NCBI GenBank assembly: GCA_965250285.1
Contig: OZ252299.1
Location: 3,392,001-3,456,000 of the forward strand
DNA length: 64,000 nucleotides
DNA from: Myxococcota bacterium
GTDB taxonomy: Bacteria; Myxococcota_A; UBA9160; UBA4427
Reading direction: 5' to 3'
Part shown: in pieces, positions 22,951 through 40,322 of the stretch
How the letters are laid out: each line of letters opens with the position of its first letter
How positions within the stretch are numbered: the first letter of the stretch is position 1
Made by a program: the position numbers and the translations under genes
The notes under the pieces: generated by a model
Seen by the model: the letters and a program-made list of their open reading frames with translations, nothing else
What the model was told of the DNA's origin: nothing
The model's database searches: none

Positions 22951-24084
22951 CTAGGCGTCACCCGCGAGCAGGGCAGGCCGCGCCGGCGACAGCGCGGCGC
23001 GCTCGTCGGGGTCGACCGGCGCGCGCATCAAGAGCGCCGCCGCGAGTCGCCCCGCCTCAGCGCCGCAGACCATGCCGGCGCCCGCGAGCCCGGCGACCCA
23101 GTGAAGCCCGTCGACGTCGCCATCGGCACCGATCACGAATCGACCGTCGGCCGTCAGCGTGCGCAGACCGCACCAGAAGTGTCCGGCCGCCCCATGCAAG
23201 AGCTCGGGCATGAAGCGCGCGGCCTTTCGCGCGATGAGCTCGCGCACGGCGTCGTCGCGACGCAGGCCATCGGGCTCGGCGTCGGTCAGGTCACACGCGC
23301 AGAGCAGCATGCCTCCGCTTTCGGGGCGTGCATAGAAGGCGTCGTCGCCGAGCTGCCAGACAACGGGCCAGTCTGGATCGATCCCCGCCGCCGGGCGAGT
23401 CACCATCAGGTGGCGTCGGGTCGGACGGAGCCGCACCCGCGAGCCCGCGCGGGCGCCGAGTTCGGCGGCCCATCCGCCGCTCGCGATCACCACGCGCGGC
23501 GCGTCGATGCGGGCGCCGGTCTCGAGGCGCACGCCTCGGACACCACCGCGCTCGACCGCGATCTCGGCGACGGGTGCGCTCTTCACGATCTCGACGCCGC
23601 GTGCCCGGGCGCCCCGCGCGAAGCCGAGCGTCAAGGCCGCGATGTCGATCTCGCCGTCGTCCGGCAGAAACACGGCGCCGGCGCCCTGGGGCTGGATCCA
23701 TGGGTGACGTGCCGCGATGCCATCCCGATCCAACCACTCGAAGCGCAGCCCCTCGCCCACCGCCTCGGCCTGGCGCTCGAGTGCCCGCTCTTCGCCCTTG
23801 GCGGCGAGCAACAACAGGCCGCGCGGGCGCACGAGCGGCACGTCGGCAAAGTCGACCGGCGGCGCGCGCAGGAACCCGGCGCTGCGCAGCGCGATGCGGC
23901 TCGTGAGCACGTCTTCGTCGAGCGTGCGGAGGATCGCGGCGTTCAGCGCGCTCGACTCGGCCGCGAGCATCGCGTTGCGCTCGACGAGCACGACTCGACC
24001 CGCATCGCGGTGCGCCGCCAGGTGGTAGGCGGTCGCGAGGCCGGCGACGCCGCCCCCCACGATCACGATCTCGGCCGTCGACAT
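22951..24084 (-). CDS. FAD-dependent oxidoreductase (D-amino acid oxidase/sarcosine oxidase family)
   Basis: IVIVGGGVAGLATAYHL, VVIASGGW, GLRTLTADGRFVIG. Confidence 0.88.
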   Translation of the reverse strand: MSTAEIVIVGGGVAGLATAYHLAAHRDAGRVVLVERNAMLAAESSALNAAILRTLDEDVLTSRIALRSAGFLRAPPVDFADVPLVRPRGLLLLAAKGEERALERQAEAVGEGLRFEWLDRDGIAARHPWIQPQGAGAVFLPDDGEIDIAALTLGFARGARARGVEIVKSAPVAEIAVERGGVRGVRLETGARIDAPRVVIASGGWAAELGARAGSRVRLRPTRRHLMVTRPAAGIDPDWPVVWQLGDDAFYARPESGGMLLCACDLTDAEPDGLRRDDAVRELIARKAARFMPELLHGAAGHFWCGLRTLTADGRFVIGADGDVDGLHWVAGLAGAGMVCGAEAGRLAAALLMRAPVDPDERAALSPARPALLAGDA

Positions 24085-24174
24085 AGAGCGAGGGTACCAG
24101 AGCGCCCGCCGACCTGAAGTCGGAGCCCCGCGCGAGCGGCGCTCGGGCCGGCGCGCGCACGGGGCGCGGGGCCC

Positions 24175-24212
24175 AAAACAGACGGGGCGCATCCCGGTGA
24201 GGATGCGCCCCG
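24175..24212 (-). terminator. Intrinsic terminator after mreB
   Basis: Perfect 12-bp stem CGGGGCGCATCC/GGATGCGCCCCG (24183-24212) followed by UCUGUUUU on minus strand. Confidence 0.75.
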
Positions 24213-24238
24213 CGCGTCACTTCGAGTCGTTCGGGGTC

Positions 24239-25276
24239 TCAGCCGAGCGCCACCTCGCGCAGCAGCGAGATGTTGTCGAGGGCCTTGCCCGCGCCGTGCA
24301 CGACGGCCGTGTACGGATCTTCGCTGCGCAGGATCGGCAGCTTGGTCTCCTGGCGCAGCACCTGGTCGAGATCCTGCAGCAGGGATCCACCGCCCACGAG
24401 CATGATGCCGCGGTCGACGATGTCGGCGGCCAGCTCGGGCGGCGTCTTCTCGAGGGTGAGGTGCACGGTCTCGACGATCGCGTGGATCGGCTCGACGAGC
24501 GCCTCGCGAATCTCTTCACTGGTCGTCACGACGACCTTCGGGATGCCCGCGACGAGGTCACGGCCCTTGATCTCCATGGTCGACTGCTTCGTGTCGGGCG
24601 AAGCGGTGCCGATCGTCATCTTGACGCTCTCGGCGGTGCGCTCACCGATCAGCATGTTGTACTTGCGCTTCACGTAGTTGATGATCGCCTCGTCCATCTT
24701 GTCGCCGCCGATGCGAATCGATCGGCTGGTGACGATGCCCGAGAGCGAGATCACGGCGACGTCGGTGGTGCCGCCGCCGATGTCGACGACCATGTTGCCG
24801 GTCGCGGCCGTGACGTCGAGGCCCGCACCGATGGCCGCGGCCATGGGCTCCTCGATCAGGAACACCTCGCGTGCACCCGCCGACAGCGCCGACTCGCGAA
24901 CGGCGCGCTTTTCGACGCTGGTGATGCACGGGGGCACGCACACGACGATGCGCGGGCGCGCGAGCGTCCGACGGTTGTGTGCGCGGTGGATGAAGTAGCG
25001 GAGCATCGCCTCGGTGATCTCGAAGTCGGCGATGACGCCGTCCTTGATCGGGCGGATCGCATTGATCGAGCCCGGCGTGCGCCCGAGCATCTCCTTGGCC
25101 GCATGACCGACGGCGAGCACGCGCTGACCGCGTCCATCGGATTTGTCGGTGACGGCGACGACCGAGGGCTCGCTGCAGACGAGGCCCTTGCCCCGGCTGT
25201 AGACGAGGGTGTTCGCCGTCCCCAGATCGATGGCGAGATCGTGCGAGAACCATCCTGCGATGGAGTCGAGCAGCAT
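24239..25276 (-). CDS. mreB: Rod-shape actin homologue MreB
   Basis: LAIDLGTANT, RPIKDGVIADF, IEEPMAAAIGAG, VVDIGGGTT, TPPELAADI. Confidence 0.97.
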   Translation of the reverse strand: MLLDSIAGWFSHDLAIDLGTANTLVYSRGKGLVCSEPSVVAVTDKSDGRGQRVLAVGHAAKEMLGRTPGSINAIRPIKDGVIADFEITEAMLRYFIHRAHNRRTLARPRIVVCVPPCITSVEKRAVRESALSAGAREVFLIEEPMAAAIGAGLDVTAATGNMVVDIGGGTTDVAVISLSGIVTSRSIRIGGDKMDEAIINYVKRKYNMLIGERTAESVKMTIGTASPDTKQSTMEIKGRDLVAGIPKVVVTTSEEIREALVEPIHAIVETVHLTLEKTPPELAADIVDRGIMLVGGGSLLQDLDQVLRQETKLPILRSEDPYTAVVHGAGKALDNISLLREVALG

Positions 25277-25571
25277 CGGCGTGTCCTTCCAGGCAGTCGG
25301 ATCGCTCGGGGGGGCGTCGAGACCTGAAGGACTGATCGGCAACAGCGCGCAGCAGTTGAGGCAAAACTGCGGCGCTGCAGTTGAAACGGACGGGCCGGGT
25401 GATCCGGGACACGCAGTGGGCGGCTCGTGCGCGCGAACGCGCGCATGCGGGGCATTCACCCCCCCAACCGCGACACGATCGGGCAGCGTTTCGCCACTCG
25501 GCTTCAGATGGATCGCCGTGCGCCCTGCGAACCGGGCCGCACGCCCTGAGGTCGCCCGGAGGCTCAGTGCC

Positions 25572-26222
25572 TCAGAAGTCGACGACCCTCGGCTCGGTCG
25601 CTTCGGCCTCGGGCTCGGCCGCGGCGGGCGCCTCGGAGGCGCCGCCGTCCCGTACCTGGGATTCGAGACCGCCGGCCGCGGCCGCCGGCGAGCCCGGCTC
25701 GGCGTGGGCGAGATCGCTGACCGCCTGGGCACGGCTCGCGAGATCGTCGACCGCGCTGCGCACGGTCGCGAGATGGGTGCGGTGCGCGTCGAGCTCGGCG
25801 CCGACGGCCGCGAGCTCGGCTTCGAGCGACTCGATCTGCGCGGTGAGCTGATCGGCCCGCTGCCCCTGCCACAGCGCGAAGACGACGGTGATCGCCAGTG
25901 CGATGCCGAGCAGCAGCGGCAATCGGCTGCGCCGCGGCGGTGCTTCGGTGGGCGCCGGGGCCGGGTTCGGCGGCGGCGTCGAGGCGGAGGGCGCGGGCTT
26001 GGGCGTGGGCGCGGGCGTGGGCGTGGGCGTGGGAGAAGGCGAAGGCGCGGACGCCGACGAAGCGCCGGGCTCAGGGGACGGCGCCGCCTTGGGCGCCGGC
26101 TCGCTCTTCGGCGCGGCAGCGGCGGCGCCGGGGGCCTGGGTGCCCTCGGCGTCGCCGTCGACCACCTTCAGGTCGGGCTTCGCCTCGGGCTGGAGATCAG
26201 TGGAGTCGTTCGATGCGGACAC
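25572..26222 (-). CDS. Hypothetical single-pass membrane protein (Pro-rich N-terminus, TM, coiled coil)
   Basis: PAPT-rich region, LPLLLGIALAITVVFALW helix, then heptad-like QLTAQIESLEAELAAV. Confidence 0.65.
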   Translation of the reverse strand: MSASNDSTDLQPEAKPDLKVVDGDAEGTQAPGAAAAAPKSEPAPKAAPSPEPGASSASAPSPSPTPTPTPAPTPKPAPSASTPPPNPAPAPTEAPPRRSRLPLLLGIALAITVVFALWQGQRADQLTAQIESLEAELAAVGAELDAHRTHLATVRSAVDDLASRAQAVSDLAHAEPGSPAAAAGGLESQVRDGGASEAPAAAEPEAEATEPRVVDF

Positions 26223-26332
26223 GGCGCGGCCCTCCGGTGCGGTGACGCCGGCGGCGCGGAGCGAGTCGTTCGGACGAGTGAGCCGCTTTCGGCTCGGTCT
26301 GGCTGGGCTTGCGCTCGAGGGGCCGGCTCGGA

Positions 26333-27739
26333 TCAGCTCTGGATGACCAGCTTCGAGAGGCTCGTCTTGCGCAGGTTGGTCTTCTGAATCGTCCGCACGA
26401 GCTCCGCCACCTTCTCGGTGTCGGTCTCGAAGGGATTGTTGCAGATCACGCGGACGTTCAACAGGTTGCCGAGCCGGATGTTCGACCAGTCGAGGTCGTA
26501 CTGGATCGAGTTCTCGCGGGCCAGCTTGATGAACTCGCCCCGCATCCGGGCGCGCGTGTCGGGCGGCGGCTCGCTCTTCGCGGCATCGACCTCTTCATCG
26601 CTGAAGACGCGCTCGACCGCGCCCCGCCGCTCGAGCAGGTAGTAGAGGCTGCGGTCGCGCTGGATGTCGTGGTACTGCAGGTCGAGCATGAAGACCTTCG
26701 GATCGCTCCACGACGCGCCATGGCGATCGACGTAGCTCTCGATCAGCTTGCGCTTGATCACCCAGTCGACGTGCCGGTCGAGCTTGTTCGGATCGTCGTC
26801 GAGGCAATCGAGCACGTACTGCCACATGCCAACGGCCTGCTTGTGCTCGTCGTCGACCGGATACTGCTCGATGTACTTCTGCGCCATCTCGCAGTACTCG
26901 CGCTGGATCTCGATCGGGCTGTACTCGCGCCCGTTGTCGAGTCGCAGCTTGCGCTTGCAGGTGACGTCGTAGGTGATGTCCTTGATGGCCTTCACGGGGT
27001 TGCGCAGCGTGAAGTCCTTGTTGATGTAGTTGTCCTCGATCATCTGGAGGACGACCGAGCAGGCACCCACCTTCACGAAGTTGGTGTACTCGCTCATGTT
27101 CGAGTCGCCGACGATCACGTGTAGGCGTCGATACTTCTCGCGGTCGGCGTGGGGCTCGTCGCGGGTGTTGATGATCGAGCGATCGTTGGTCGTGGTGCCC
27201 GAGATCTTCTGATAGATGTGCTGGGCACGCTGGCTGACGCAGTAGTGCACGCCGTCCTGGGTCTGGAAGACCTTGCCCGCGCCCGTGTAGATCTGGCGCG
27301 TCACGAGGAACGGGATCAGCTGCTCGGCCAGGTAGTAGAAGTCGACGTCTCGGTCGACGAGATAGTTCTCGTGACAGCCGTAGCTGTTGCCCACGAAGTC
27401 GGTGTTGTTCTTGAAGATCGAGAGCTTCCCGGGGATGCGCTCCTCGGCGATCTTCTCTTCGGCGTAGTTCTGCAGATCCTCGAGGATCCGCTCACCCGCC
27501 TTGTCGTAGATGATGAGCTGCTTCGGCGAGATGCACTCGGGCGTCGCGTACTCGGGGTGGCACCCGGTGTCCTGGTAGAAGCGCGCGCCGTTCTCGAGGA
27601 AGACGTTGAGAAAGTGCTCGGTGGTGATCAGCTTCTCGAAGAGAAAGCGGATGGCCTTCTCGACCGGCAGGGTCTTCCGCCCTTCGGGCGTGAAGATGAT
27701 CCCGTACTCGGTCTCGATTCCGTAGATCCGCTTCTGCAT
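26333..27739 (-). CDS. pafA: Pup--protein ligase
   Basis: RIYGIETEYG, FLENGARFYQD, HPEYATPEC, SYGCHENY, INTRDEPHAD, RLHVIVGDSN, LDLQYHD; follows prcA. Confidence 0.93.
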   Translation of the reverse strand: MQKRIYGIETEYGIIFTPEGRKTLPVEKAIRFLFEKLITTEHFLNVFLENGARFYQDTGCHPEYATPECISPKQLIIYDKAGERILEDLQNYAEEKIAEERIPGKLSIFKNNTDFVGNSYGCHENYLVDRDVDFYYLAEQLIPFLVTRQIYTGAGKVFQTQDGVHYCVSQRAQHIYQKISGTTTNDRSIINTRDEPHADREKYRRLHVIVGDSNMSEYTNFVKVGACSVVLQMIEDNYINKDFTLRNPVKAIKDITYDVTCKRKLRLDNGREYSPIEIQREYCEMAQKYIEQYPVDDEHKQAVGMWQYVLDCLDDDPNKLDRHVDWVIKRKLIESYVDRHGASWSDPKVFMLDLQYHDIQRDRSLYYLLERRGAVERVFSDEEVDAAKSEPPPDTRARMRGEFIKLARENSIQYDLDWSNIRLGNLLNVRVICNNPFETDTEKVAELVRTIQKTNLRKTSLSKLVIQS

Positions 27740-27976
27740 CTTCCTCGACCTTCGCTCTTCTTCCTTCGCCCTTCGTCCGCGCGACCTTCCACTCACCACT
27801 CACTGGCCGACTGCGGGCCATCGTTCGACCGAGCGGCTCGGGCGCCGAGCGCCCCTCGAAACCGGTCGCGCGACCGGGTGCAGAGACCCTAGCGCTTCCG
27901 TTGCGAGGCCCGGCGCCCGTGGCGGCGGCCGCCCGGGAATCCGACGAATCTGGACGAAGCTGTCCAGGACACGCCG

Positions 27977-28675
27977 TCAGCCTCCGAGCAGACCACTGAC
28001 CTCATCGGCAGAAAGCCGTCGGAACTTGCGGCGCCCATCCTCGCGGTTGAGAACGCAAACTTCCATGTTCTCCGGAGCCAGCGGCCCGCCGCCATCCCGC
28101 CCCGCTTCGAGGGCGCGCCGCCCCAGGGTGAGCCCGGCCGCCAGATCCATCCCGGCCCGGAACTCGTCGCGGAGCACCTGCTCGACGCCATCGACGTTGC
28201 CGCCGATCACGCAGAAATCGCGGTGATCGCTGATGAAACCGTCGAAGCTGATGCGGTAGAGGGCGTTCTCCTTGTGGTCTTCGTAGCGGTCGTCCCCCAC
28301 CTCGGCCACGATGAGCTCGATCTCGAGCGGCTTCATCTGGTTGGTGAAGACTTCGCCGATCGCCTGGCTGTACGCGTTGGCGATCGCTTTGCCGCGCACG
28401 TCCTCTCGGCTGTAGGCGTAGCCCTTCGTGTCGGCGAAGCGCACGCCGAGCTTCCGCAGCTGATCGAACTCGCTGAACTTGCCGACGCCGGCGAACGCGA
28501 TGCGGTCGTAGAGCTCGCCGACCTTCTGCAGTGTCGTCGAGTTCTCGGCCATCATCAGCACGCCATCCGCACACTCGAGGACGGCGATCGACTTGCCACG
28601 CGAGATGCCCTTGCGCGCAAAGTTCGCCTTGTCCTCCATCACCTGTTCGGGTGAGACGTAGAACGGCATGCTCAT
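27977..28675 (-). CDS. prcA: 20S proteasome alpha subunit
   Basis: MSMPFYVSPEQVMEDKANFARKGISRG, ELYDRIAFAGVGKFSEF, GYAYSREDV. Confidence 0.96.
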   Translation of the reverse strand: MSMPFYVSPEQVMEDKANFARKGISRGKSIAVLECADGVLMMAENSTTLQKVGELYDRIAFAGVGKFSEFDQLRKLGVRFADTKGYAYSREDVRGKAIANAYSQAIGEVFTNQMKPLEIELIVAEVGDDRYEDHKENALYRISFDGFISDHRDFCVIGGNVDGVEQVLRDEFRAGMDLAAGLTLGRRALEAGRDGGGPLAPENMEVCVLNREDGRRKFRRLSADEVSGLLGG

Positions 28676-28773
28676 CGGGCTGTACCTCCGCCGATGCGTC
28701 GGCGCTGCGTTTCAGATGCGGCCAGCGAGGGCCCGCAAGAGAACGGCATGCTCATCGGGCTGTCCCTCCGCCG
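28660..28773. repeat. 34-bp direct repeat (80-bp period) duplicating the prcB stop/prcA start junction
   Basis: AGAACGGCATGCTCATCGGGCTGT(A/C)CCTCCGCCG at 28660-28693 and 28740-28773, one mismatch. Confidence 0.95.
28672..28755 (-). CDS. Putative 27-aa mini-ORF MSMPFSCGPSLAASETQRRRIGGGTAR
   Basis: Own translation; ATGA overlap with prcB stop and with prcA start; GGAGG before its ATG; expression unproven. Confidence 0.4.
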   Translation of the reverse strand: MSMPFSCGPSLAASETQRRRIGGGTAR

Positions 28774-29570
28774 GCGCGGCGCTCCATCAGCGCGCGATAC
28801 AGAGACTCGATCTCTGCTTCTTCGACATCGGTGAGGCCCGAGTCGTCGCAGGTCTTGATCACGGGGAAGATGCGGCGCTCGAGATCGACGCCGCCGGTGG
28901 CCCGATCTTCGTCGGCCGCCGCCGTCAGCGCGGCCACGCCGGCAGCGACGGCGTCTTCACGCGACATGTCGGTGCCCCAGTCGTGCTTGATCGACTCGCG
29001 GGCGTACAGACCACCCGAACCGGTTGCATCGAACTCGGCCTCTTCGTATCGGCCACCGGTGATGTCGAACTTCCAGAGACGACCGTGCTTGCGACGCTGA
29101 TCGAAGCCCGCGAACAGCGGCACCACCGCCAGGCCCTGCATTGCGGCCGGCAGGTTCTGGCGGATCATCTGGCTCAGCTTGTTGGCCTTGCCCTCGAGCT
29201 CGAGGGCCTCGCCCTCGATCTTCTCGTAGTGCTCGAGCTCGACCGAGAGGATGCGCGCCATCTCGATCGAAGGCCCCGCCGCACCCGAGATCGCCATGAG
29301 CGAGTGAGAGTCGGTGGCAAAGACCTTGACCACGTCACGCGAGGCCACGCTGTGACCGGCCGTGGCGAGTCGGTCGCCGCCCACGAGGACGCCGCCGGCG
29401 TAGCGCATGGCAATCACGGTGGTGCCATGCGGCACCTGAATCGCAGCACTCGCCTGCCAGGCAGACAGGTCGGGCAGCAGCTGCGGATGTTCGTGCTGGA
29501 GCAACTCGAAGAAGCTCGAGCCCTGATACGTGCCTGTCGCCGTGCTGAGTGACGTGGCTTTCGGAAGCAC
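28752..29570 (-). CDS. prcB: 20S proteasome beta subunit with propeptide
   Basis: SSFFELL propeptide, PHG|TTVIA autocleavage site with catalytic Thr, GDRLAT, LEHYEKIEG, ATGSG, DEDRATGG; GTG start estimated. Confidence 0.96.
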   Translation of the reverse strand: MLPKATSLSTATGTYQGSSFFELLQHEHPQLLPDLSAWQASAAIQVPHGTTVIAMRYAGGVLVGGDRLATAGHSVASRDVVKVFATDSHSLMAISGAAGPSIEMARILSVELEHYEKIEGEALELEGKANKLSQMIRQNLPAAMQGLAVVPLFAGFDQRRKHGRLWKFDITGGRYEEAEFDATGSGGLYARESIKHDWGTDMSREDAVAAGVAALTAAADEDRATGGVDLERRIFPVIKTCDDSGLTDVEEAEIESLYRALMERRAGGGTAR

Positions 29571-29681
29571 CGATCCCCCCAATCGATGACGCCGCCTCGC
29601 TTGTCTGTGGAGCCTCCCGCAGACCTCGCGGACGCGCCGATGTCTCGAACCAGATGGAGCCAAGGACTCGCCCGTGTCGGC

Positions 29682-29963
29682 CTACTCGCCGCCGCGCTGG
29701 ACGTAGTTCTTGACGAACTCCTCTGCGTTCTCTTCGAGCACGTTGTCGATCTCATCCAGGAGATCGTCCATCTCGCCCTTCAGCTCGTCGCCCTTCTTGG
29801 CGAGCTTCTGGCCGCCGTCGCCCTTCTCACCCGACTCTTCGTCGCTGCCGCCACCCTTGCTCTTCTGCTTCTGGCCGCCTTCATCGGCCGCCATGAAGAT
29901 GGTGGCGTCGCTCCGGGCCTCTCGGCGGGCGAGCTCATTCGCGTTTCTCACGATTCTTGCCAT
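29682..29963 (-). CDS. pup: Prokaryotic ubiquitin-like protein Pup
   Basis: C-terminus DDLLDEIDNVLEENAEEFVKNYVQRGGE; GGAGGTG RBS before ATG 29963; between dop and prcB. Confidence 0.96.
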   Translation of the reverse strand: MARIVRNANELARREARSDATIFMAADEGGQKQKSKGGGSDEESGEKGDGGQKLAKKGDELKGEMDDLLDEIDNVLEENAEEFVKNYVQRGGE

Positions 29964-30008
29964 GGTGTCACCTCCGGGGTTCCCAGTGCCGCCGAAGCAG
30001 CCGCCGAG

Positions 30009-31493
30009 TCACCCGTTCATGTTCGCCAGCAGATCTGATGCACTGGCGGAACGATCGAGAAGGTCTTCGACCATCGCGCGCGTGCCCTTCAACGGCTCGG
30101 ACATCATCACGCGCTTGATCGGCTCATCTTCGAACCCGAACGAGATCGAGTCCCAGTTGACGCCGAAGACTTCACCCGTGTAGCGGCGCAGACACTCGCC
30201 ACGGAAGTACGCGCGCGTGTCGTCGGGCGGGGTAAAGACGGCGGCATTGATTTCTTCGTCGCTCACGATGCGCTCGACCTTGCCCTGGCGCTCGAGCATG
30301 TAGTAGAGGCCCTTGTCGGGTCGCGTGTCGTGGTACTGCAGGTCGAGCATCTGCACCTGCGGTGACTGCCAGTCGAGCTCCTTGCGCTGCATGAAGCTCT
30401 CGATCAGGTTGCGCTTCGCGATCCAGTCGATCTGCTCCACCAGCTCGTTCGGATCGCGCTGCAGGCACGTCATGACGTGCTCCCACTTCTCGACGACGTC
30501 ACGCGTGACGGCATCGACGCCCGTCTTCGCGACGTAGCGCTGCGCCATCTCGAGGTACTCGCATTGCATCTCCACGGCGGTCATGTACTTGCCGTTGTCG
30601 AGGTGCAGCTGGTGCTTGAGCGACGGATCGTGCGAGACCTCCTTGATGCCGCGCACCGGGTCTCGAAGGGCGAGGTCGCGGTCGATCGCGCCGTCTTCGA
30701 TCATCTGCAGAATCAGCGCCGTGACGCCGTTTCGCAGGTAGATCGTGTATTCGCTCATGTTCGAGTCGCCGACGATGACGTGCAGGCGTCGGTACTTGTC
30801 GCGGTCGGCGTGAGGCTCGTCGCGGGTGTTCACGATCGGCCGTTTCACCATCGTGTCCAGTGCGACCTCGGTCTCGAAAAAGTCGGCTCGCTGCGAGATC
30901 TGATAGTCGCAGGGCTGGACACGATTCTCGCTGCCGACCTTGCCCGCGCCACAGTAGACCTGGCGCGTGGTGAAGAACGGCAGCAGGTGCTCGACGATGC
31001 GCTTGAACGACGTGCGGCGATCCATGAGATAGTTCTCATGGCTGCCATAGCTGTTGCCCTTGCGATCGCTGTTGTTCTTGTGGAGAAGCATCTGCGCGCC
31101 ATCGGGCAGCAAGCCATTCGCTTCGCGCCGACTGATCTCGACCACGCGCTCGCCGGCCTTCTCGTGAATCACGAGGTCTCGCGCATTCGTGACCTCGGGA
31201 CACGAGTACTCGGGATGCGCGTGATCGACGTAGTACCGCGCGCCGTTCACCAGCGTCTTGTTGCGTGCGATGTTCTCTTGCTGATTGGGCGTGTACTTCT
31301 CGCCGTCGACCTGGAAGCCACGCGCATCGGCGAGCGGATTCTCCTGCTCGTAGTCCCAGAGAATCGTCCCATCCGGGTCTTCGCGATACGCGTTGACGAG
31401 GAGGACGCAGCTCGAGATCGGGTCGAAGTCGGGATCGTTCTTGACGATGATCCCGTACTCGATCTCTGTGCCCATGACGGTCGGAATGGCCAT
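30009..31493 (-). CDS. dop: Pup deamidase/depupylase
   Basis: VMGTEIEYG, WDYEQENPLADARGF, NGARYYVDHAHPEYS, SYGSHENY, QRADFFE, RAYFRG. Confidence 0.93.
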   Translation of the reverse strand: MAIPTVMGTEIEYGIIVKNDPDFDPISSCVLLVNAYREDPDGTILWDYEQENPLADARGFQVDGEKYTPNQQENIARNKTLVNGARYYVDHAHPEYSCPEVTNARDLVIHEKAGERVVEISRREANGLLPDGAQMLLHKNNSDRKGNSYGSHENYLMDRRTSFKRIVEHLLPFFTTRQVYCGAGKVGSENRVQPCDYQISQRADFFETEVALDTMVKRPIVNTRDEPHADRDKYRRLHVIVGDSNMSEYTIYLRNGVTALILQMIEDGAIDRDLALRDPVRGIKEVSHDPSLKHQLHLDNGKYMTAVEMQCEYLEMAQRYVAKTGVDAVTRDVVEKWEHVMTCLQRDPNELVEQIDWIAKRNLIESFMQRKELDWQSPQVQMLDLQYHDTRPDKGLYYMLERQGKVERIVSDEEINAAVFTPPDDTRAYFRGECLRRYTGEVFGVNWDSISFGFEDEPIKRVMMSEPLKGTRAMVEDLLDRSASASDLLANMNG

Positions 31494-31588
31494 CGGCTCT
31501 CCGGTCCCCGCTTCTAGTCCGCCTGCGCTCACCGCGGCCGCGAGAGGCTAACCCACCCACCGCGCATCGGCGGGCAGGCGCCTGCGGC

Positions 31589-31619
31589 CGCCCGATGCCG
31601 GCCATGCCGGCATCGGGCG
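31589..31619. other. Perfect 14-bp intercistronic hairpin between arc and dop
   Basis: CGCCCGATGCCGGC-CAT-GCCGGCATCGGGCG, 7 nt after the arc stop, no U-tract. Confidence 0.8.
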
Positions 31620-31626
31620 TGAGGTT

Positions 31627-33492
31627 TCAGACGTACTGGCCCTGGCCGGCGGCCACGTTCTCGACCATTTCTTCTTTGCGCTCGACGCCCGTGATGAGCG
31701 TGCGGACATTGATGATCCGCTCGCCCTTCCGGCCCGAGATGCGCGCCCAGTCGTCCGGGTTCGTGGTGTTCGGGAGATCCTCGTTCTCCTTGAACTCCTC
31801 GCGCACCGACTCGATCATGTCGACGAGCTTGATGCCTCGCTCCTCGTTCTCGATGAGCCGCTTGACCGCCTTGCGCTTCGCGCGTGCAACGATGTTCTCG
31901 ATCATCGCGCCACTGGCGAAATCCTTGAAGTAGAAGATCTCGCGCTCGCCCTTGGCGTAGGTCACCTCGAGGAACTTCATCTCGTCGCCGGTCGAGTACA
32001 TGTTGTCGATGACCTTGTCGATCAGCGCACGACACGCCGCGGCGTTGTCGGCTCCGCCGTCTGCGCTCTGAGAGGTCGAGAGCGCCGACTCGTGGATCGG
32101 CAGGTCGGGCGTGAGATACTTGCGGAAGATCTCTCGCGCCGAGTCCGCGTCGGGTCGCTGCACCTTGACCTTCAGGTCGAGTCGACCGGGGCGCAGCACC
32201 GCCGGGTCGATCAGATCCTGGCGATTCGATGCACCGATCACGATGACGTTCTCGAGCGATTCGACGCCGTCGATCTCCGAGAGGAACTGAGCGACGACGG
32301 TGGCCTCCATGTCGCTCGAGATGCCGCTGCCGCGCATGCGGAAGAGCGAATCCATCTCGTCGAAGAACACGACCACCGGGATGTCCTGACTCGCCTTCTC
32401 GCGCGCCTTCTTGAACACCTCGCGAATCTTGCTCTCGGTCTCGCCGACGTACTTGTTGAGCAGCTCGGGACCCTTGACGTTCAAGAAGTACGCCGTCGTC
32501 GTCTTGCCCGTGCGTTCCTCGAACTTCTTGGCCAGAGCGTTCGCCACCGCCTTCGCGATCAGCGTCTTGCCGCAGCCGGGCGGGCCGTAGAGCAGGATGC
32601 CCTTCGGCGGCTTCAGCTGGTGCTCGGCGAACACGTCGGGGTGCAGGTAGGGCAGCTCGACCGAGTCGCGCAGGATCTCGATCTGGTCGCCCAGGCCGCC
32701 GATGTCCTCGTACGTGACGTCCGGCACCTCCTCGAGCATCACCTCTTCGACCGCCGACTTCGGCATCTTCTCGAGGGCGTAGAGCGTTCGCGTGTCGATC
32801 ATCAGGTGATCGCCCACGCGGATCTTCTCGCTCCGCAGCGGCTCGGAGAGGGTCACGACCCGCTCGTCGTCGGCATGGCCCATCACCAGCACCCGATTCT
32901 CGCTGACGAAGTCGGAGACGGTGACGACCTCGCCGCGCTGGGTGTAGCCCGAGGCCTCGACGACGTTGAACGCCTCGTTGAGAACCACGAGCTGGCCCTC
33001 TTCGAGCTGGAACGGATCGAGGTTGGGATGTGTGTTGACGCGCATCGGCCGACCGTCGACGACGATCTCGCTGGTGCCGTCCTTGTTCGCCCGCGTGAAG
33101 ATCCCGTAGGTGTTCGGCGGCGCGCAGAGCTTGTCGACCTCTTCCTTCAAGAGCTCGATCTGCTGCTTGGCCTCCTGGAGCATCGCGACCAGCTTCTCGT
33201 TCTGTCGCTCGGCATCGCGCACCTGGGTGCGACTCTGCTCGTAGCGGCGTCGAAGCGTTTCGAAGTCGGCGAGCACGCGATCGAGGCGATGCCGGAACTC
33301 GGACGAATCACTCCCGAAGAAGCGCATCGCGTCTTCGAGGTGCTCGAGCTCACTTTGCGCACGGGGCTCAGAGGGACCGGGACCCTCGGGTCCGTCCTCC
33401 GCCGAGGGCGGTGTGGCGGGGTTGATCCGCCGCATCACGTCTCGGACGAAGCCCTTCCGACCGTTGCCCGAACCGGAATCGTTCTCGCTCAT
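31627..33492 (-). CDS. arc: Proteasome AAA ATPase ARC/Mpa
   Basis: Coiled coil ending [76 protein letters not shown]-terminal GQYV. Confidence 0.97.
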
Positions 33493-33556
33493 TGCGCCGT
33501 CTCCTCGTAGGGGTCCCTTCGATCACCGATGGGGCCGCTCTCTCTCCCCTGGTCTA

Positions 33557-33572
33557 TGCGAGGGCCGTGCCA
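33557..33572 (-). promoter_or_regulatory. Sigma54-type -24/-12 promoter candidate
   Basis: Minus strand TGGCACG-GCCC-TCGCA versus consensus TGGCACG-N4-TTGCW; exact GG-N10-GC spacing; 65 nt before arc start. Confidence 0.7.
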
Positions 33573-34005
33573 AACTCGACTGCGGGCCCGGAATTCCAAC
33601 CAAGGCGGAGCGCTTGCACCTTGGCGGTCCGGGGGGGGAGCCGCGCAGTCGCCTTGCGACCCAGCAGCAGCGTCGAGCCAGCGGGAACGCCTCGAGGCTG
33701 CGTACGCGCCGCTCAGGGCCCGTGCAGCCATGCTCTCGAGCTCTCTCGCACACGAGCCCGAGCCATTTTTCAGCGGGGGGATCAGGTCTTCGGCCGTCCT
33801 GCAAGTCCCTGTCGGTGCGCTGAAAAGCAGCATCCCGTGAGATGCGCGGACGGCGCGCTCGTCGTTTCTGAACGCTTGCGCGAGGGGCAGCGGCCCTCTC
33901 GGTGGCCTCAGCGGCCAGGAGCACAACGACATCTTCGGACGACAGCTGGATCGGCGGCTTGAAACGTCGAACCTCTCGGAATCTCGCGTCTTTTGAGCTG
34001 ACTTA

Positions 34006-34033
34006 AGGGTACTGGCGATCGCCATCGTGTCAA
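34006..34033 (-). promoter_or_regulatory. Sigma70-type promoter candidate facing arc
   Basis: Minus strand TTGACA-16 nt-TACCCT in a locally AT-richer stretch. Confidence 0.5.
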
Positions 34034-34402
34034 CCACACTACACACGCACGTGACTCGCTAAGCCACCGTTTCAAAACCGCTTTATGCTGGCGCGACGGC
34101 CTGCCGGAAGTCGCCGTGCCAGCCTCCTATAAGTGAGTTGCCGAAACCACGGTCGAGGTGCCGCACAACGCGCACCTTCCGCCGAAAAACGTCGCCACGG
34201 AACGAAGTGCTGCGCGGCGCCGCATCGGGCGGCGGGCGCGCCCAGCACCGATTTCGACGGATTTCGAACGGGTGGCGTCGGGTTCCGAACGTTCCCCGGG
34301 GCCGCCCGAGGCCGCAAAGCCTTGCAGGCGACGGCCCGCGACCGCAGCGTTTGGGGTCAAATGAGCAAGGCGACGGCGCCGTGAGGGCGGCCGAGCGGCG
34401 CT

Positions 34403-35236
34403 CTAGGGGCCCGAAGCGTCGCCCCCGGCGATGCCCGGCTCGAGATCGACGACCCGGACACCCTCGACGGCCTGCCACTCGAATCGACTGGCGGGCGGCT
34501 TCTGGTCGAAGCGCACGTCGGCGAAGCGCAGCTCGGTCACGTTGCCGAAGAGATCGAAGATCGTCGTGCCGACGACGACCGAGTTCGCGTCGACCGCGAT
34601 CTCCAGCTTCTCGTACGAAGCGTCCTGTCTCGGCAGAAGCGCGAGCCGCACCCGGTCGGCCTCACAGCCCGCGAGATCGACCTCGAACGCGTCGGCGATC
34701 GCGCCTTCGCCGAGCAGAAACTGGAGCGCCGCCCCGGCGAGGTACCCCGAGGTCACCTGCGCGCGCGTCACCTCTCGGGCCGGCACGTCGTAGATCCAGA
34801 GCGTCTGGCCGTTCGAGAGCACCAGACTCTCGCGCGGCGCCGCGTAGTGCCAACGCATGCGGCCGGGCTTCGAGATCTGAACCCGCCCCGTCGTGGCCTC
34901 GTCGTCGCCGAGCCCGGCCCCGCCCATCATCACCGAGCGCGTGGTCTGGCTGAATCGGGCCTCGAGGTCGCTGATCGCGTCGTACCGCGCCTGCACGCCG
35001 GCCACGACGGCCTCGACGTCGACCTCCGCACAGGCCGACGCCTCGTCGGCGCGCGCCGCGCCGGGCCACGCAACGAATGTGAGCAGGACGAGCCACAGCA
35101 GGCCGATCGATGCGCGCCGGCCCGACGGCGTCGCTGCGCGTCGGTCGCGCCAGCCCGTCTCGGGCATCGCGGTGGGGGCGTCTCGCATGGCGACGCAGAT
35201 CCTCACAGGCGCTCGGGTCATGGAGCGGTGGGACAC
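34403..35236 (-). CDS. lolA: Outer-membrane lipoprotein carrier LolA (start uncertain)
   Basis: Signal peptide, ARFSQ, SKPGRMRWHY, SNGQTLWIYD; downstream of ftsK. Confidence 0.85.
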   Translation of the reverse strand: MSHRSMTRAPVRICVAMRDAPTAMPETGWRDRRAATPSGRRASIGLLWLVLLTFVAWPGAARADEASACAEVDVEAVVAGVQARYDAISDLEARFSQTTRSVMMGGAGLGDDEATTGRVQISKPGRMRWHYAAPRESLVLSNGQTLWIYDVPAREVTRAQVTSGYLAGAALQFLLGEGAIADAFEVDLAGCEADRVRLALLPRQDASYEKLEIAVDANSVVVGTTIFDLFGNVTELRFADVRFDQKPPASRFEWQAVEGVRVVDLEPGIAGGDASGP

Positions 35237-35282
35237 CGCCGGGCCTCCCCCGGATCACCCGGCCTCGGCACCGGAGAGTGGC

Positions 35283-37787
35283 CTATTCGTCGGCCGCCAG
35301 CTCGCCGCCCTCGCCCTCTTCGGGGTTGGGCAGGAAGATCTCACGCGGCCGCGTACCGACCTGCGGGCCGATCATCCCACTGTGCTCCATCTGCTCGATG
35401 ATGCGAGCTGCGCGGTTGTAGCCGATCTTCAGGCGGCGCTGGATGTACGAGATCGAGGGCTTGCGCGACTCGGCCACGATGGCGACGGCCTGATCGAACA
35501 TCTCGTCGACCTCCTCGTCGTCGACCTCACCGCCAGCGGTCTCGGGCCCCTGCTCGGTGAATCGGACGAGCTCTTCATCGAAGACCGGCTTGCCCTGCTC
35601 CTTCAGGCAGTCCACCAGCTGCACGACCTCCTTCTCGCTCACGAACGAGCCGTGCACGCGTTGCAGGGTCGAAGTTCCCGGCGGCAGGAACAGCATGTCG
35701 CCCATGCCGAGCAGATTCTCGGCCCCCTTCTGATCGAGGATCGTGCGCGAGTCGGTCGACGACGAGACCTGGAACGAGACGCGCGAAGGGAAGTTCGCCT
35801 TGATGACGCCGGTCAGAACGTCGACGCTCGGGCGCTGGGTCGCGAGCACGAGATGGATGCCGGCCGCGCGCGCCATCTGCGCCAGACGCTGCAGCGACTC
35901 CTCGACCTCCTTGGCCACCATCACCATGAGATCGGCGAGCTCGTCGATCACGACGACGATGTACGGCATCTCGGCCCAGGGCACCTCTTCGGGCTCGCCC
36001 TCGGCGTGCCCCTGCTTGGCCTTCAGCGTGAACGTCTCTTCGCCCTCGGCGATCTTCTCACGCGCCTTCTCGTTGAACTGTTTGATGTTGCGAACCTGCA
36101 CCGAGCTCATCATCTGATATCGCTCTTCCATCTTGCGCACGACGCCCTGCAGCGCAGCCGCGGCCCGCTTCGGGTTGGTCACCACGTCGGCGATGAGATG
36201 GGGCACACCCTCGTAGATCGAGAGTTCGAGCAGCTTCGGGTCGACCAGCAGCAGCTTGAGCTGATCGGGCGTCGCGCGACAGAGCAGCGACGTGAGCAGG
36301 GAATTGAGGAAGACGCTCTTGCCCGTGCCGGTCGAGCCCGCGACGAGCACGTGGGGCATCTTCGCGAGATCGGCCACCACCGGCGCGCCGAAGATGTCCA
36401 TGCCCATCGCGACGGTGAGCGGTGAGTCGTTCTTGCGAAACACATCGGCCTCGAGAACGGTGCGCAGGTACACGATGTCGCGGCTCGCGTTCGGCACCTC
36501 GATACCGACCACGCTCTTGCCCGGCAGCGGCGCGATGATGCGAATCGAGATCGCGCGCAGCGCCATCGTCAGGTCATCCGTCAGGTTGACGATGCGGTTG
36601 ACTTTGATGCCGGCCGCCGGCTCGAACTCGTACATCGTGATCACGGGACCAGGGTGCACGCGCACGACCCGCCCCTCGACGCCGAAGTCGGCGAGCTTCT
36701 TCTCGAGGATCTTCGAGTTCATGAGCAGGCTCTCGCGGTCGTACGACCGCTCACCGCTCTCGGGCTTCGCGAAGATCGAGACGTCGGGCAGCTGGAAGGG
36801 GCCGACCGGGCCTTCCTCACGGAACTCGAACGTCTCCTGCTCGGGCTTGCGCTGCTTCGAGCGTTCTTCCTCGTGATCGACGATGTCGGGCTCGCCCCCG
36901 CGTGCCGTGCGCGGCGCCGGCGCCGGCGCGGCGTCGACCTCGATCGGGCGCGCCTTCTTCGGCGCAGTTTCGGCGGGCTTCGGCGGCTCGGCCTCGGCGA
37001 TGGGGTCTTCGATCTCGGGTCCGCGGCGATCGAGGACTCGCTCGCGGCGGGCCTGCTGCTCTCGCCAGACGCGGAAGCGCGCGGGCCACTCGCGCAGCCA
37101 GTCGACGCTCTGCTCGACACCAGTCGCCACGAAAGCGAGCGCCTGGCGCAGCCCCTGACCGATCCAGAGGGCGCCGGCCGCAGTGACGCGCCCGGTCGCG
37201 GCCGCCGCGCTACCCACGGCCGCCAGCGCTTGGCCGCTCGAGATGCCGACGGCGCCCAGGCCCGCGACCAGGAGCAGAGCACCGTTCACGACGAGCGCGC
37301 CCCAGCTCGACAGCAACAGCGACTCGGCACCACCGAGCTTCGCTCCGAGCCAGCCACCCGAGGCGGCGACGGGGGGCAGCGCGCCGGGAGCGACCCGGCT
37401 GACCAGCTCGGGGAGCGTCGCGCCGACCACCAGGAGCAACCCGCTGGCGATCCAGAAGCGGGAGAGCAGGGGCGGCATGCCGCGGCCGAGCACGAGACGG
37501 CCGCCGACGACGGCGCACGACGCGACGAGCACATAGGCCGCCACGCCGAACGCGCGAACCAGACCGGCCGACAGCGTGGCGCCGATCGCGCCGAGCAGGT
37601 TCTCGACTTCGACCAGCTCGAGCACCGGGTCGTAGGGTGAGTAGGTCGCGAGGGCGAGCGTTGCGATCAGGGCGAAGAAGAGCAGTGCGAGCCCGGCGGC
37701 CTCGGCCCCGACGCTGGCGAGCAGGCCGGGGCCATCGCTGGGCGCTGCGCTCTTGGATCTCGCTCGCTTCGCCGCTGCTCTAGCCAC
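35283..37787 (-). CDS. ftsK: DNA translocase FtsK
   Basis: N-terminal TM segments, PGPVITMYE, MPHVLVAGSTGTGKS, VIDELADL, ATQRPSVDV, QRRLKIGYNRAAR; GTG start estimated. Confidence 0.97.
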   Translation of the reverse strand: MARAAAKRARSKSAAPSDGPGLLASVGAEAAGLALLFFALIATLALATYSPYDPVLELVEVENLLGAIGATLSAGLVRAFGVAAYVLVASCAVVGGRLVLGRGMPPLLSRFWIASGLLLVVGATLPELVSRVAPGALPPVAASGGWLGAKLGGAESLLLSSWGALVVNGALLLVAGLGAVGISSGQALAAVGSAAAATGRVTAAGALWIGQGLRQALAFVATGVEQSVDWLREWPARFRVWREQQARRERVLDRRGPEIEDPIAEAEPPKPAETAPKKARPIEVDAAPAPAPRTARGGEPDIVDHEEERSKQRKPEQETFEFREEGPVGPFQLPDVSIFAKPESGERSYDRESLLMNSKILEKKLADFGVEGRVVRVHPGPVITMYEFEPAAGIKVNRIVNLTDDLTMALRAISIRIIAPLPGKSVVGIEVPNASRDIVYLRTVLEADVFRKNDSPLTVAMGMDIFGAPVVADLAKMPHVLVAGSTGTGKSVFLNSLLTSLLCRATPDQLKLLLVDPKLLELSIYEGVPHLIADVVTNPKRAAAALQGVVRKMEERYQMMSSVQVRNIKQFNEKAREKIAEGEETFTLKAKQGHAEGEPEEVPWAEMPYIVVVIDELADLMVMVAKEVEESLQRLAQMARAAGIHLVLATQRPSVDVLTGVIKANFPSRVSFQVSSSTDSRTILDQKGAENLLGMGDMLFLPPGTSTLQRVHGSFVSEKEVVQLVDCLKEQGKPVFDEELVRFTEQGPETAGGEVDDEEVDEMFDQAVAIVAESRKPSISYIQRRLKIGYNRAARIIEQMEHSGMIGPQVGTRPREIFLPNPEEGEGGELAADE

Positions 37788-38222
37788 GTCGTCCACCCCG
37801 TCCGGACCCGAAAGCGGGTCTGCGGGGGGTGTCTTGGTTCTGAACGTGTGGTCGGTCGAGCGCGCTGTCTGCGTCGGCCCATGCGCGCGACTCGGCCGGG
37901 TGGCCGGGATCGACGCTCGGATCATGGAGCCTCTGCGGGCGCGGCCCGCGCGGGCCTGCCGCACCGTTCACGATGAAACGCTGTTCGACCAGACGGTGCT
38001 CGCGCAGAACACTCGACATCTTCCCTCACCCCCCGGAAAGGGAACCACCCGGCGAGCATACCGGTGGCGCCCCGGACGCGCCATCGACGCGTCGGGGCGC
38101 GCGCGAACCGCGATCGGTCGGGTGCGGGCGCGACCGCGGCCGGATCGAGCCTTGACTGCCCCGAGAGTGGCTGGGATCATCGTTTCTTCATTCCCCCTTT
38201 CGAAGTCCCGATGGAGCCCCCC

Positions 38223-38675
38223 ATGGCCGGAGTAAACAAGGTCATTCTCGTTGGCAATCTCGGTCGCGATCCGGAGCTGCGGTACACGCAGAACGGGCAA
38301 GCGGTCGCGAACTTCACGCTCGCGACGACCGAGAACTGGAACGACAAGAACGGCGAGCGGACCGAACGCACCGAATGGCACCGCATCGTCACGTGGGGGA
38401 AGCTCGCCGAGCTGTGCGCGCAGTACCTCAACAAGGGACGCACGGTGTACGTCGAGGGACGACTGCAGACGCGCGAGTGGGAAGACCGCGAAGGCAACAA
38501 GCGGCAGACCACCGAGATCAATGCTCAGACGGTCAACTTCCTGGGCGGGGGTCGCGGTGAGGGTGGCGGCGGCGGCGCACCGCGCGGGGGCGGCGACGGA
38601 CCGGGCGGAGCCGGTGGCCCGGCAGGAGGTCCGCCCGGCGGCCCGCCCTCGGCCGACGACGACATCCCCTTCTAG
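38223..38675 (+). CDS. ssb: Single-stranded DNA-binding protein
   Basis: [22 protein letters not shown], Gly-rich tail, DDDIPF. Confidence 0.98.
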
Positions 38676-38745
38676 AGCGGCCTCGCACGCGACGGCGAAC
38701 CCGTCCATGTGGCCGAGTCGCGATCGGCAATCGCGGAGCGGTGCG

Positions 38746-38808
38746 ACGCGTGCGCGCGGTGGTCACACGCGAGCGCGCGATGGTCATACGCGTGCACCCG
38801 GTGATCGA
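38746..38808. repeat. Degenerate 21-bp tandem repeat x3
   Basis: ACGCGTGCGCGCGGTGGTCAC / ACGCGAGCGCGCGATGGTCAT / ACGCGTGCACCCGGTGATCGA between convergent genes. Confidence 0.75.
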
Positions 38809-38862
38809 CTGTGCGTGAAGCGGGTCTGCGCGGGATGCGGCGGCGCCACGCGCCGCGCGCTC

Positions 38863-39243
38863 TCAGCTCTGGGGCTGGCCGATCCGAAGCGAACGAATCA
38901 GGACGTCGATGCGCGCCCGATCTTCGGGCGAGAGCTCTTCGAACTCGATGCCCATCCCGGGCGGGTTCAGCGCATCACCCGGCGTCACGTGGACGACCCG
39001 GCCAATGGTGCGCACGGTCTCGTCGCTGCCGGGTAGGTTGAAGTGCATCGTGACCTCGGTGCCCTGCAATTGCGGCTTCTCGGTCTCGATGAACAGGCCG
39101 CCCTCGTTGATGTCCCGGGTGAACTCCGAGAACATCTCATCGACCGTCGAGTAGTCGACGCGAACGATGAGCTCCGTGCGCAGGCTGCGCCGTCGCTCCT
39201 CGGCCTCCGAGGCCTCTGCGCTCTCGAAACTGACTCGCGCCAT
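38863..39243 (-). CDS. Stand-alone PilZ-domain protein (myxobacterial TIGR02266-like)
   Basis: ERRRSLR (RxxxR), DINEGGLFI, PPGMGIEF. Confidence 0.85.
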   Translation of the reverse strand: MARVSFESAEASEAEERRRSLRTELIVRVDYSTVDEMFSEFTRDINEGGLFIETEKPQLQGTEVTMHFNLPGSDETVRTIGRVVHVTPGDALNPPGMGIEFEELSPEDRARIDVLIRSLRIGQPQS

Positions 39244-39602
39244 CGTCTGGCTCCGACCGGCGTGCGCCCCGCGCCCCTTGCCGCGTGACAAGGGACCCGG
39301 TCGCGTCCCATCGCACATCGCATCGGCCTCGCGGCCGAAGAACCTGAGCCGGACACCCCCTCGTCGAGGAGGAGCCGCCTGAACGACCTGGGCGACTGAA
39401 ATTCAACGTGGCTGAAAGATTGCGCTCAAGGAGCCCGCACGCCGGCCGATGAACAAGAAGCTTCCGCGGCGCGACGGCGACCCCGCGCGCACCCTGTCGG
39501 GAGCACATTCGAAACGGCGACGTCCAGTGAGGCGCGCCGTTTCGTCGTTTCTGGGCGCCGACGGACGCGGCGGCGGACGTGCAAGTGTGGCCCGAACGCG
39601 CC

Positions 39603-40322
39603 TCATGACAGCGCGCCGGCATCCTCGAGTTGCCCGGCCTCTCGAAAGCTGTAGTAGCCGTCGCCCGCCACGATCACGTGGTCGACGACACGAATGCCCA
39701 CGAGACGACCCGCCGCAGCCAACCGTTCGGTGACGGCGGCGTCTTCAGCACTCGGCGAGGGGTCGCCGCTCGGATGGTTGTGCGCGATCAGGATCGCCGC
39801 CGCGCTCTCGCGGACCGCGAAGCGAAAGACCTCGCGCGGGTGGACCAGGCTCGCCGTCAGGGTTCCGACCGAGACGACATGCTCGGCCCGCATGCGGTGC
39901 CGCGCATCGAGGCCGAACACACGGAACTGCTCGATCTCGAGATCGCGGACGAGCGGACGCAGATACCGATCGACGTCGGACGGTGCTCGAAAGGCAACGC
40001 CGCGCCGCGCGCGCCGCGTCGCGACCCACCGACCGAGCGCGACGGCCGCGACCAGCCGATCGGCGCCGGCCCGGCCGACGCCGGGCAATCGCGAGAGCTC
40101 TTCGGCCGTGGCCCTCGCCAACCCGTCGAGGCCACCCACGCGATCGAGGAGCGCCTCGGCCAGACCGAGCCCACCCGCGCGCCGACGGCGAGGACGCAGC
40201 ACCCGGTGCACGAGCGCGGCGGGTGCGAGGTCGCCGGCGTCGAACTCGCCGGATTCGTCTTCGTGGCTCGCGCCGGCCCGCGCGATCGGCGCGCTGGCGG
40301 TGCGCTCGGACAACGCCTTCAT
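39603..40322 (-). CDS. radC: RadC-like JAB-domain protein
   Basis: HhH-like LPGVG, GTLTASLVHPREVF, HNHPSGDPSPSAED, GIRVVDHVIV. Confidence 0.92.
   Translation of the reverse strand: MKALSERTASAPIARAGASHEDESGEFDAGDLAPAALVHRVLRPRRRRAGGLGLAEALLDRVGGLDGLARATAEELSRLPGVGRAGADRLVAAVALGRWVATRRARRGVAFRAPSDVDRYLRPLVRDLEIEQFRVFGLDARHRMRAEHVVSVGTLTASLVHPREVFRFAVRESAAAILIAHNHPSGDPSPSAEDAAVTERLAAAGRLVGIRVVDHVIVAGDGYYSFREAGQLEDAGALS

Follow-up and report, generated by a model that had tools for sequence, protein, structure and literature searches.

The 64-kb stretch of DNA analysed here, referred to as the window, carries a complete Pup-proteasome operon, arc-dop-pup-prcB-prcA-pafA, in the genome of a diderm member of the Myxococcota, and comparison with related genomes supports this operon as a class-wide, vertically inherited and near-core trait of the host lineage. 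Coordinates refer to the whole window, and curated family calls are those of NCBIfam models applied with their own cut-offs. All six genes lie on the minus strand, reading from 33492 to 26333, and every one of them scored above its cut-off:

31627..33492, minus strand: arc/mpa, proteasomal AAA+ ATPase, 621 aa (TIGR03689, 737.7 vs 504.75; match to 7PX9, E 1e-193)
30009..31493, minus strand: dop, deamidase/depupylase, 494 aa (TIGR03688, 578.3 vs 492.3; match to 5LRT/4B0R, E 3e-163)
29682..29963, minus strand: pup, 93 aa, ATG backed by a Shine-Dalgarno (SD) site, RGGE end (TIGR03687, 62 vs 41.45; PF05639 also above its cut-off)
28752..29570, minus strand: prcB, 20S beta subunit, 272 aa, with a predicted propeptide of 49 aa (TIGR03690, 285.9 vs 191.9)
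27977..28675, minus strand: prcA, 20S alpha subunit, 232 aa (TIGR03691, 285.9 vs 139.05; match to 1Q5Q, E 5e-62)
26333..27739, minus strand: pafA, Pup ligase, 468 aa (TIGR03686, 555.4 vs 551.3)

The start codons of dop (ATG 31493), prcB (GTG 29570) and pafA (ATG 27739) are the likely ones judging from homology and SD sites. The original prediction had described six contiguous, co-oriented genes with intact signature motifs, which was borne out by these scores and by the residues aligned to solved structures. For comparison within the class, 40 loci were available that had been fetched because of a prcA or pafA match and therefore do not form a random sample of it. Arc combines a coiled coil, two OB domains and an AAA module with a penultimate tyrosine, and its alignment to a solved structure places the Walker A and B motifs, the KYVG pore loop, RPGR and a C-terminal GQYV; the Arc motifs are intact in 40/40 class loci, with a GQYx terminus in 39 of them. 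In Dop, the structure alignment places GTEIEYG, the Dop-loop and DHAHPEY, the last two of which are found in all 40 class loci, as is the spacing of Asp17 and Lys33 in PrcB, whose HG|TT processing site and residues Thr1, Asp17 and Lys33 are intact in the window. PafA shows the features of a ligase, namely the GhExE motif (here GIETEYG, with E9 and E11 kept), the catalytic aspartate D57, which aligns with D64 of 4B0T, and no Dop-loop, and its AlphaFold model superimposes on the PafA-Pup crystal structure 4BJR with a TM-score of 0.89. Its C-terminal tail is class-specific and near-invariant, ending in SKLVIQS in 39/39 closed open reading frames (ORFs), and has no confident structure in the model, with a predicted local distance difference test (pLDDT) value of about 53. 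Overall, the catalytic motifs are kept in 37-40 of 40-41 class loci, the misses in pafA being contig-end truncations, one partial and one split gene.

The host genome, G000 (6.25 Mb, one contig, 95.4% complete), contains each of the six genes as a single copy. A fourth, weak match to the proteasome family (38 bits), beyond PrcA, PrcB and HslV, is located at C1:2471257-2471808. BamA, LpxA, RpoN and HslV scored above their cut-offs in G000 and in four near-complete relatives (5/5 each), and the presence of BamA and LpxA in all five identifies the host as diderm. The RecA search returned 120 matches, and the five with an organism name were all Myxococcota, while the named PafA matches at 78-92% identity are labelled Myxococcota, Myxococcales, Deltaproteobacteria or simply "bacterium". 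The flanking gene order recurs in one record titled Myxococcota (L024) and in one titled Deltaproteobacteria (L023), both of which fall inside the class clade. The markers recA, pilT and PilZ (TIGR02266), which were among those from which an outer-membrane, myxobacteria-related host had been proposed, are present in the window, and this assignment stands. G000 probably belongs to class UBA9160 of the GTDB, judging from the Myxococcota labels and a two-order class structure that matches this taxonomy. The name Vahlivitia has been proposed for UBA9160 in a preprint (10.64898/2026.07.10.737566) in which a proteasome is nowhere mentioned.

The operon is set among core genes, with ssb, ftsK and lolA upstream and a membrane ORF, mreB and, further on, mltG downstream, and no integrase or transposase was found among the 48 window ORFs scanned. 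At third codon positions, the six genes have a GC content (GC3) of 0.82-0.93, which is also the range of six flanking core genes. Both the core-gene setting and the host-like codon usage thus agree with what had been noted before. Total GC dips over the operon to 0.625-0.655, as opposed to about 0.69, which is accompanied by low GC at codon position 2. Contigs of run X1 span both operon edges with zero letter differences; this run could, however, be the source sample itself, and the three runs all come from one study.

A survey of related genomes, which the original prediction had called for, revealed the operon throughout the class. Pup was found in 179/191 class genomes of at least 80% completeness, and in an even sample of the phylum the 20S alpha model matched 55/58 class genomes vs 0/243 other genomes. 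The six genes follow ftsK-lolA in the same order in 39/40 fetched class loci. The exception is G025 (L141), a genome of 68% completeness with only the 3' part of pafA and no upstream operon; L113 and L138 stop inside pafA at a contig edge, and pafA is split in L137. In L025 (9788-11404), pafA is accompanied by no more than a 3' fragment of prcA, and the upstream operon is absent. L025 and L141 may represent local loss, rearrangement or misassembly. For a test of congruence, the operon tree was compared with a tree of FtsK and MreB using 34 loci, 7/41 having been dropped; 21/31 splits are common to both, including families f1, f7, f9, f12 and f13, and the distances correlate with a rho of 0.91. 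The claim of an ancient, vertically kept system is upheld by the distribution, the gene order and the congruent trees, and the absence of the six-gene system from the rest of the phylum suggests that it was gained in the class ancestor.

The Pup tags of the class end in RGGE (25) or RGGQ (16) in the 41 ORFs compared. The UBact model NF033388 gave no match in G000, with two Nitrospirota controls positive. The main peculiarity of the tag is its N-terminus:

29895..29963, minus strand: predicted 23-residue N-terminal extension of Pup before the canonical-position Met24

From the best SD-scored ATG, 32/41 class Pup ORFs have a length of 83-97 aa, and in 19 of these 32 no Met stands close to the canonical start; barring an unusual start, the extension must be translated there. 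Independent gene calls likewise give mostly 86-102 aa. The codon-position GC of the extension is 0.60/0.52/0.72. Actinobacterial Pups are shorter, with 41/42 listed lengths at 60-71 aa and the remaining entry, of 228 aa, being an artefact, and class Pups usually exceed them by 15-28 residues at the N-terminus. The extension begins with a basic-hydrophobic stretch, followed by a variable linker, a hydrophobic patch and a conserved Ala-Ala; in the 133 pattern-matching sequences the junction reads Y/F/W/I at -2 and then A/S-A/S. In the AlphaFold model of Pup, a helix spans residues 50-89 and the N-terminal half is of low confidence, the extension forming only a low-confidence helix (pLDDT 54-67).

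A second peculiarity lies upstream of arc, where the long lolA-arc spacer contains promoter motifs and no conserved RNA beyond them, an Rfam scan of 24000-40000 having returned two chance-level matches only:

33557..33572, minus strand: predicted sigma-54 -24/-12 promoter, 80 nt upstream of arc
34006..34033, minus strand: predicted sigma-70 promoter, TTGACA-16 nt-TACCCT, 541 nt upstream of arc
33969..33981, minus strand: conserved box, loosely like a site of the integration host factor (IHF), about 50 nt downstream of the -35 hexamer

The sigma-54 site has the GG-N10-GC core with consensus flanks and a fixed place, 59-166 nt upstream of the arc match in 38/40 class loci (shuffled mean 1.0), as opposed to 2/44 non-class loci (shuffled mean 1.55), and the host possesses both RpoN, as in all five genomes, and activators, with 13 sigma-54 activator domains above 200 bits in G000. 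A good sigma-54 match is also located 224 nt before the arc match in L029, a Rokubacteria locus. The pattern TTGACA-N15-19-TAnnnT occurs in 32/40 class upstream regions (307-652 nt upstream), in none of the shuffles and in 3/44 non-class regions; a stock sigma-70 scanner reported 0 sites in the window, and the sigma-70 call rests on this conservation. Within two mismatches of the IHF consensus, the box is found in 17/32 class loci vs about 7% of random windows, and the window's own copy is poor with 4 mismatches. The operon is likely driven by two promoters, both predicted, of which the sigma-70 one would be basal and the sigma-54 one inducible.

Applied to G000, a matrix derived from the class sigma-54 sites yielded 28 candidates followed by an ORF, and 20 of these were annotated. 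The targets comprise an ammonium transporter, an ANTAR response regulator, a type IV pilin, PPK2, WS/DGAT, CP-ATP-grasp, seven unrelated families and 7 genes without a family. The CP-ATP-grasp gene may have a link to nitrogen as well. These targets fit a real sigma-54 motif and would allow a link to nitrogen. A pattern search of G000 for sigma-54 sites combined with SD sites was dropped, as it fell below its reversed control (21 vs 69). Separately, three tandem ORFs of 339 aa at C1:1449115-1453116 of G000 each stand behind a sigma-54-like site of their own, and the one scanned belongs to no Pfam family.

Genes, motifs, distribution, synteny, promoter-motif conservation and trees were computed directly, and from these we infer activity, transcription starts, the trigger and the role of the extension. 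With its catalytic and docking residues intact, the operon probably serves the ATP-dependent degradation of pupylated cytoplasmic proteins. PafA would couple the C-terminal Glu of Pup to lysines of the substrate at the expense of ATP. As the window's Pup already ends in Glu, Dop would act only as a depupylase, while the relatives with a Gln end (16/41) would first need deamidation by Dop. The coiled coils of Arc would then bind the Pup helix, the Pup N-terminus would be threaded and GQYV would dock on the alpha ring, so that the Thr1 sites of the beta subunits, once their propeptide is removed, could cut the substrate. According to PMC8755798, the N-terminus of Pup acts as threader into the ATPase pore and docking proceeds via GQYL; a longer and more hydrophobic handle is hence the best guess for the extension, which would most likely give Arc more to thread. 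As a trigger we tentatively propose nitrogen or nutrient limitation relayed by a sigma-54 activator, the cell gaining from the recycling of amino acids, by analogy with Mycobacterium smegmatis, for which recycling by the Pup-proteasome under nitrogen starvation is described (PMC8223512).

Several observations weigh against this reading in its details. The Arc terminus in the window is GQYV and not GQYL, a variant present in 3/40 class Arcs. The extension is missing in 9/41 class Pups, mostly of family f13, which makes it dispensable in some lineages. No motif that could represent an upstream activator sequence is shared within 170 nt upstream of the sigma-54 site, and only 2/20 annotated matrix targets are clear nitrogen genes, 7 having no family and the others being mixed (glycosidase, GAPDH-like, RHS, kinases).

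The strongest alternative concerns the trigger. The same machinery might answer envelope, motility or developmental signals through sigma-54, possibly on a transcript that continues into mreB, which we regard as conceivable, if somewhat doubtful. Between arc and the end of mreB no terminator-like site was found, a strong one first appearing at 24213-24182; the matrix also matches pilin and signalling genes, and G000 has the 13 strong activator domains. However, amtB and the ANTAR regulator carry the same motif, and the gap between pafA and mreB, which varies from 170 to 4619 nt among relatives, argues against tight co-transcription.

A different role for the extension is less probable, namely that of a pro-peptide or degron which controls free Pup and is cut at the hydrophobic junction before Ala-Ala. 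The two conserved hydrophobic patches flanking a variable linker and the junction consensus would suit such a function, and the junction resembles a chymotrypsin-like site. However, a candidate protease was not identified, the modelled helix is of low confidence, and the extension is missing from the Pups mentioned above, so that we consider this explanation unlikely and retain the threading handle.

It is more doubtful still that pupylation is mainly non-degradative, with Arc remodelling or disassembling tagged complexes and the 20S particle only loosely coupled. The mean identity within the class is 61% for PrcA/PrcB, which thus evolve faster than PafA (88%, the slowest in the block, compared with 81% for MreB), Dop (74%) and Arc (73%); HslV is present as well, and proteasome-free pupylation is described for some Actinobacteria (PMC8223512). 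However, prcB and prcA are kept in 55/58 class genomes together with Thr1, Asp17 and Lys33, and Arc retains its GQYx docking end almost throughout, which makes this explanation very improbable. Degradation by the coupled proteasome therefore stays the preferred function.

To place the class among other carriers of the system, named comparison loci were drawn from 2/64 parts of the genome collection and ranked by likeness to one query, for which reason the sample may lack deep actinobacterial classes. The class is monophyletic in each of five single-gene trees and lies outside the sampled Actinomycetota; its genes are neither nested in nor sister to them. In a PafA tree from which the truncated L113 was left out, the nearest relatives, sister to the class with a support of 97, share 62-65% identity with it. 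The unrooted concatenated tree of five genes groups the class with Poribacteria and Nitrospirota with a support of 99 and Rokubacteria with Actinomycetota, and its topology is the same under LG+G4 and C20. Forcing the class and Actinomycetota together was rejected in the approximately unbiased (AU) test (p-AU 0.0003; 10 actinobacterial rows, LG+G4). The designation as "actinobacterial-type" can hence be kept for the machinery, but not in the sense of an actinobacterial donor, as the genes form a clade beside Poribacteria and Nitrospirota. When rooted with Dop, the PafA tree shows Actinomycetota nested among diderm lineages (95, 99). However, balanced reciprocal rooting of PafA and Dop did not settle the root, and diderm monophyly withstood the test (p-AU 0.48, 0.57); for this reason no donor or direction of transfer is assigned. 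A bolder scenario combines a diderm Pup-proteasome with a processed or separately read "pro-Pup" under sigma-54 with a radiation of the system among diderm phyla (the Myxococcota class, Poribacteria, Nitrospirota and Rokubacteria) in which Actinobacteria are one recipient branch; we hold this combination to be improbable.

A recent transfer or an assembly chimera from an actinobacterium, for which a gene order identical to that of actinobacterial loci, identities of 44-62% to most of them and the lower total GC over the operon could be cited, is refuted by the class-wide synteny, the tree congruence and the AU test, next to the host-like GC3 and the contigs over both edges, and is hardly credible.

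By its gene content and motifs, the class operon belongs fully to the Pup-proteasome family, and its tag length, promoter type and accessory set make it a variant particular to the lineage. With the actinobacterial system it shares the six families, their order, the catalytic and docking motifs and the GG[EQ] tag, as well as a PAC2-family gene elsewhere in 5/5 class genomes. It differs in its diderm host, its own clade, HslV alongside, the conserved predicted sigma-54 site, the near-invariant extra tail of PafA and the longer Pup. Bpa accompanying the 20S genes and pafBC near pafA are given as actinobacterial traits in PMC8223512. In our data, Bpa was found in 0/5 class genomes, with actinobacterial controls 2/2 positive, and no pafBC adjoins pafA in the window or the class loci, this search having been confined to the neighbourhood of pafA.

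The loci of Nitrospirota, Poribacteria and Methylomirabilota/Rokubacteria resemble the class in their diderm hosts and the order arc-dop-(pup)-prcB-prcA-pafA. In Nitrospirota and Rokubacteria (L028-L035, L044, L057, L143-L147), pup is missing between dop and prcB in 9/9 loci examined and is located elsewhere in the 3 genomes where it was found; the class-type sigma-54 site is absent except in L029. Poribacteria (L042, L054, L061, L066) hold the complete arc-dop-pup-prcB-prcA-pafA set, and their Pups end in GGQ and measure 65-66 aa in 4/4 cases. Leptospirilli keep HslUV beside the proteasome, and PMC3511204 notes coexistence with HslV for them only. UBact systems are alike in that a small G[EQ]-ending tag stands beside genes of the Dop/PafA family and the 20S proteasome (L143, L144), but the window's tag matches Pup models only, and PrcA/B of the UBact loci share 26-35% identity with those of the window. 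Two Nitrospirota genomes hold a Pup-type locus and a separate UBact-20S locus, that is, two proteasome systems.

Another form of Pup ligase, the stand-alone membrane type of Plesiocystis and Rhodopirellula, contains an insert of four transmembrane segments, and proteasome genes are lacking in Plesiocystis according to PMC2588565. The likeness to it is that the Pup-ligase family occurs in Myxococcota more widely, with divergent copies (149-260 bits) in 8/243 non-class genomes of the phylum. These carriers lack proteasome genes (0/243), in contrast to the window with its two soluble paralogues, Arc and 20S. Some class genomes also contain second, divergent Pup-ligase homologues, which occur in pairs or singly at about 600 aa and are possibly of the membrane type of PMC2588565:

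G038:C42 29411-31984; G038:C88 2693-5468; G301:C161 3804-6597; G219:C3 2261711-2263420; and others: divergent Pup-ligase homologues

Reviews regard the proteasome of bacteria as a mainly actinobacterial system to which there are sporadic exceptions (PMC3511204, PMC8223512, PMC7947786). Pup and PafA have been reported sporadically in deltaproteobacteria (PMC2588565), and very sporadic Dop and PafA in drafts of NC10, Nitrospinae, Proteobacteria and others, for which transfer out of Actinobacteria was proposed (PMC7947786). Some of these drafts may belong to the class studied here. Public databases already auto-name these genes. The system was rightly called little studied, inasmuch as the open literature searched, outside which most subscription papers lie, described neither the operon as a class-wide trait nor its promoter nor the extended Pup. 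The chemistry is probably ordinary, and what is gained concerns the distribution of the system, its regulation and its evolution. A near-core, syntenic operon beside HslV in a class of about 190 diderm species-level genomes widens the known distribution, and the "out of Actinobacteria" model becomes testable with better sampling. The class further offers a Pup enzyme set from non-pathogens that evolved in a Gram-negative cytoplasm, a natural experiment on the threading end of Pup, as some members have the extension and others lack it, and regulation that is wired differently, with a predicted sigma-54 promoter instead of the PafBC neighbourhood.

Two further features adjoin the operon genes:

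25572..26222, minus strand: ORF with a single transmembrane helix and a coiled coil, between pafA and mreB, no curated family above cut-off
28672..28755, minus strand: mini-ORF of 27 aa from an 80-bp junction duplication, with ATGA overlaps with the prcB stop and the prcA start

The first of these, reading from 26222 to 25572, has a disordered N-terminus with a P-x-L-x-x-V motif ahead of its transmembrane helix and coiled coil, a motif like that in the ClpX-binding tail of SspB. Similar ORFs are present in most class loci, and it is possibly on the same transcript as pafA. The mini-ORF, 21-27 aa long with a PrcA-like beginning, was found at 3/41 prcB-prcA junctions from two genera, namely in the window, in L138 of the same genus and in L106; it may relay translational coupling after the junction duplication. 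At the same junction, L123 and L139 (genus g37) carry an insert of 148-149 nt with a shared internal repeat.

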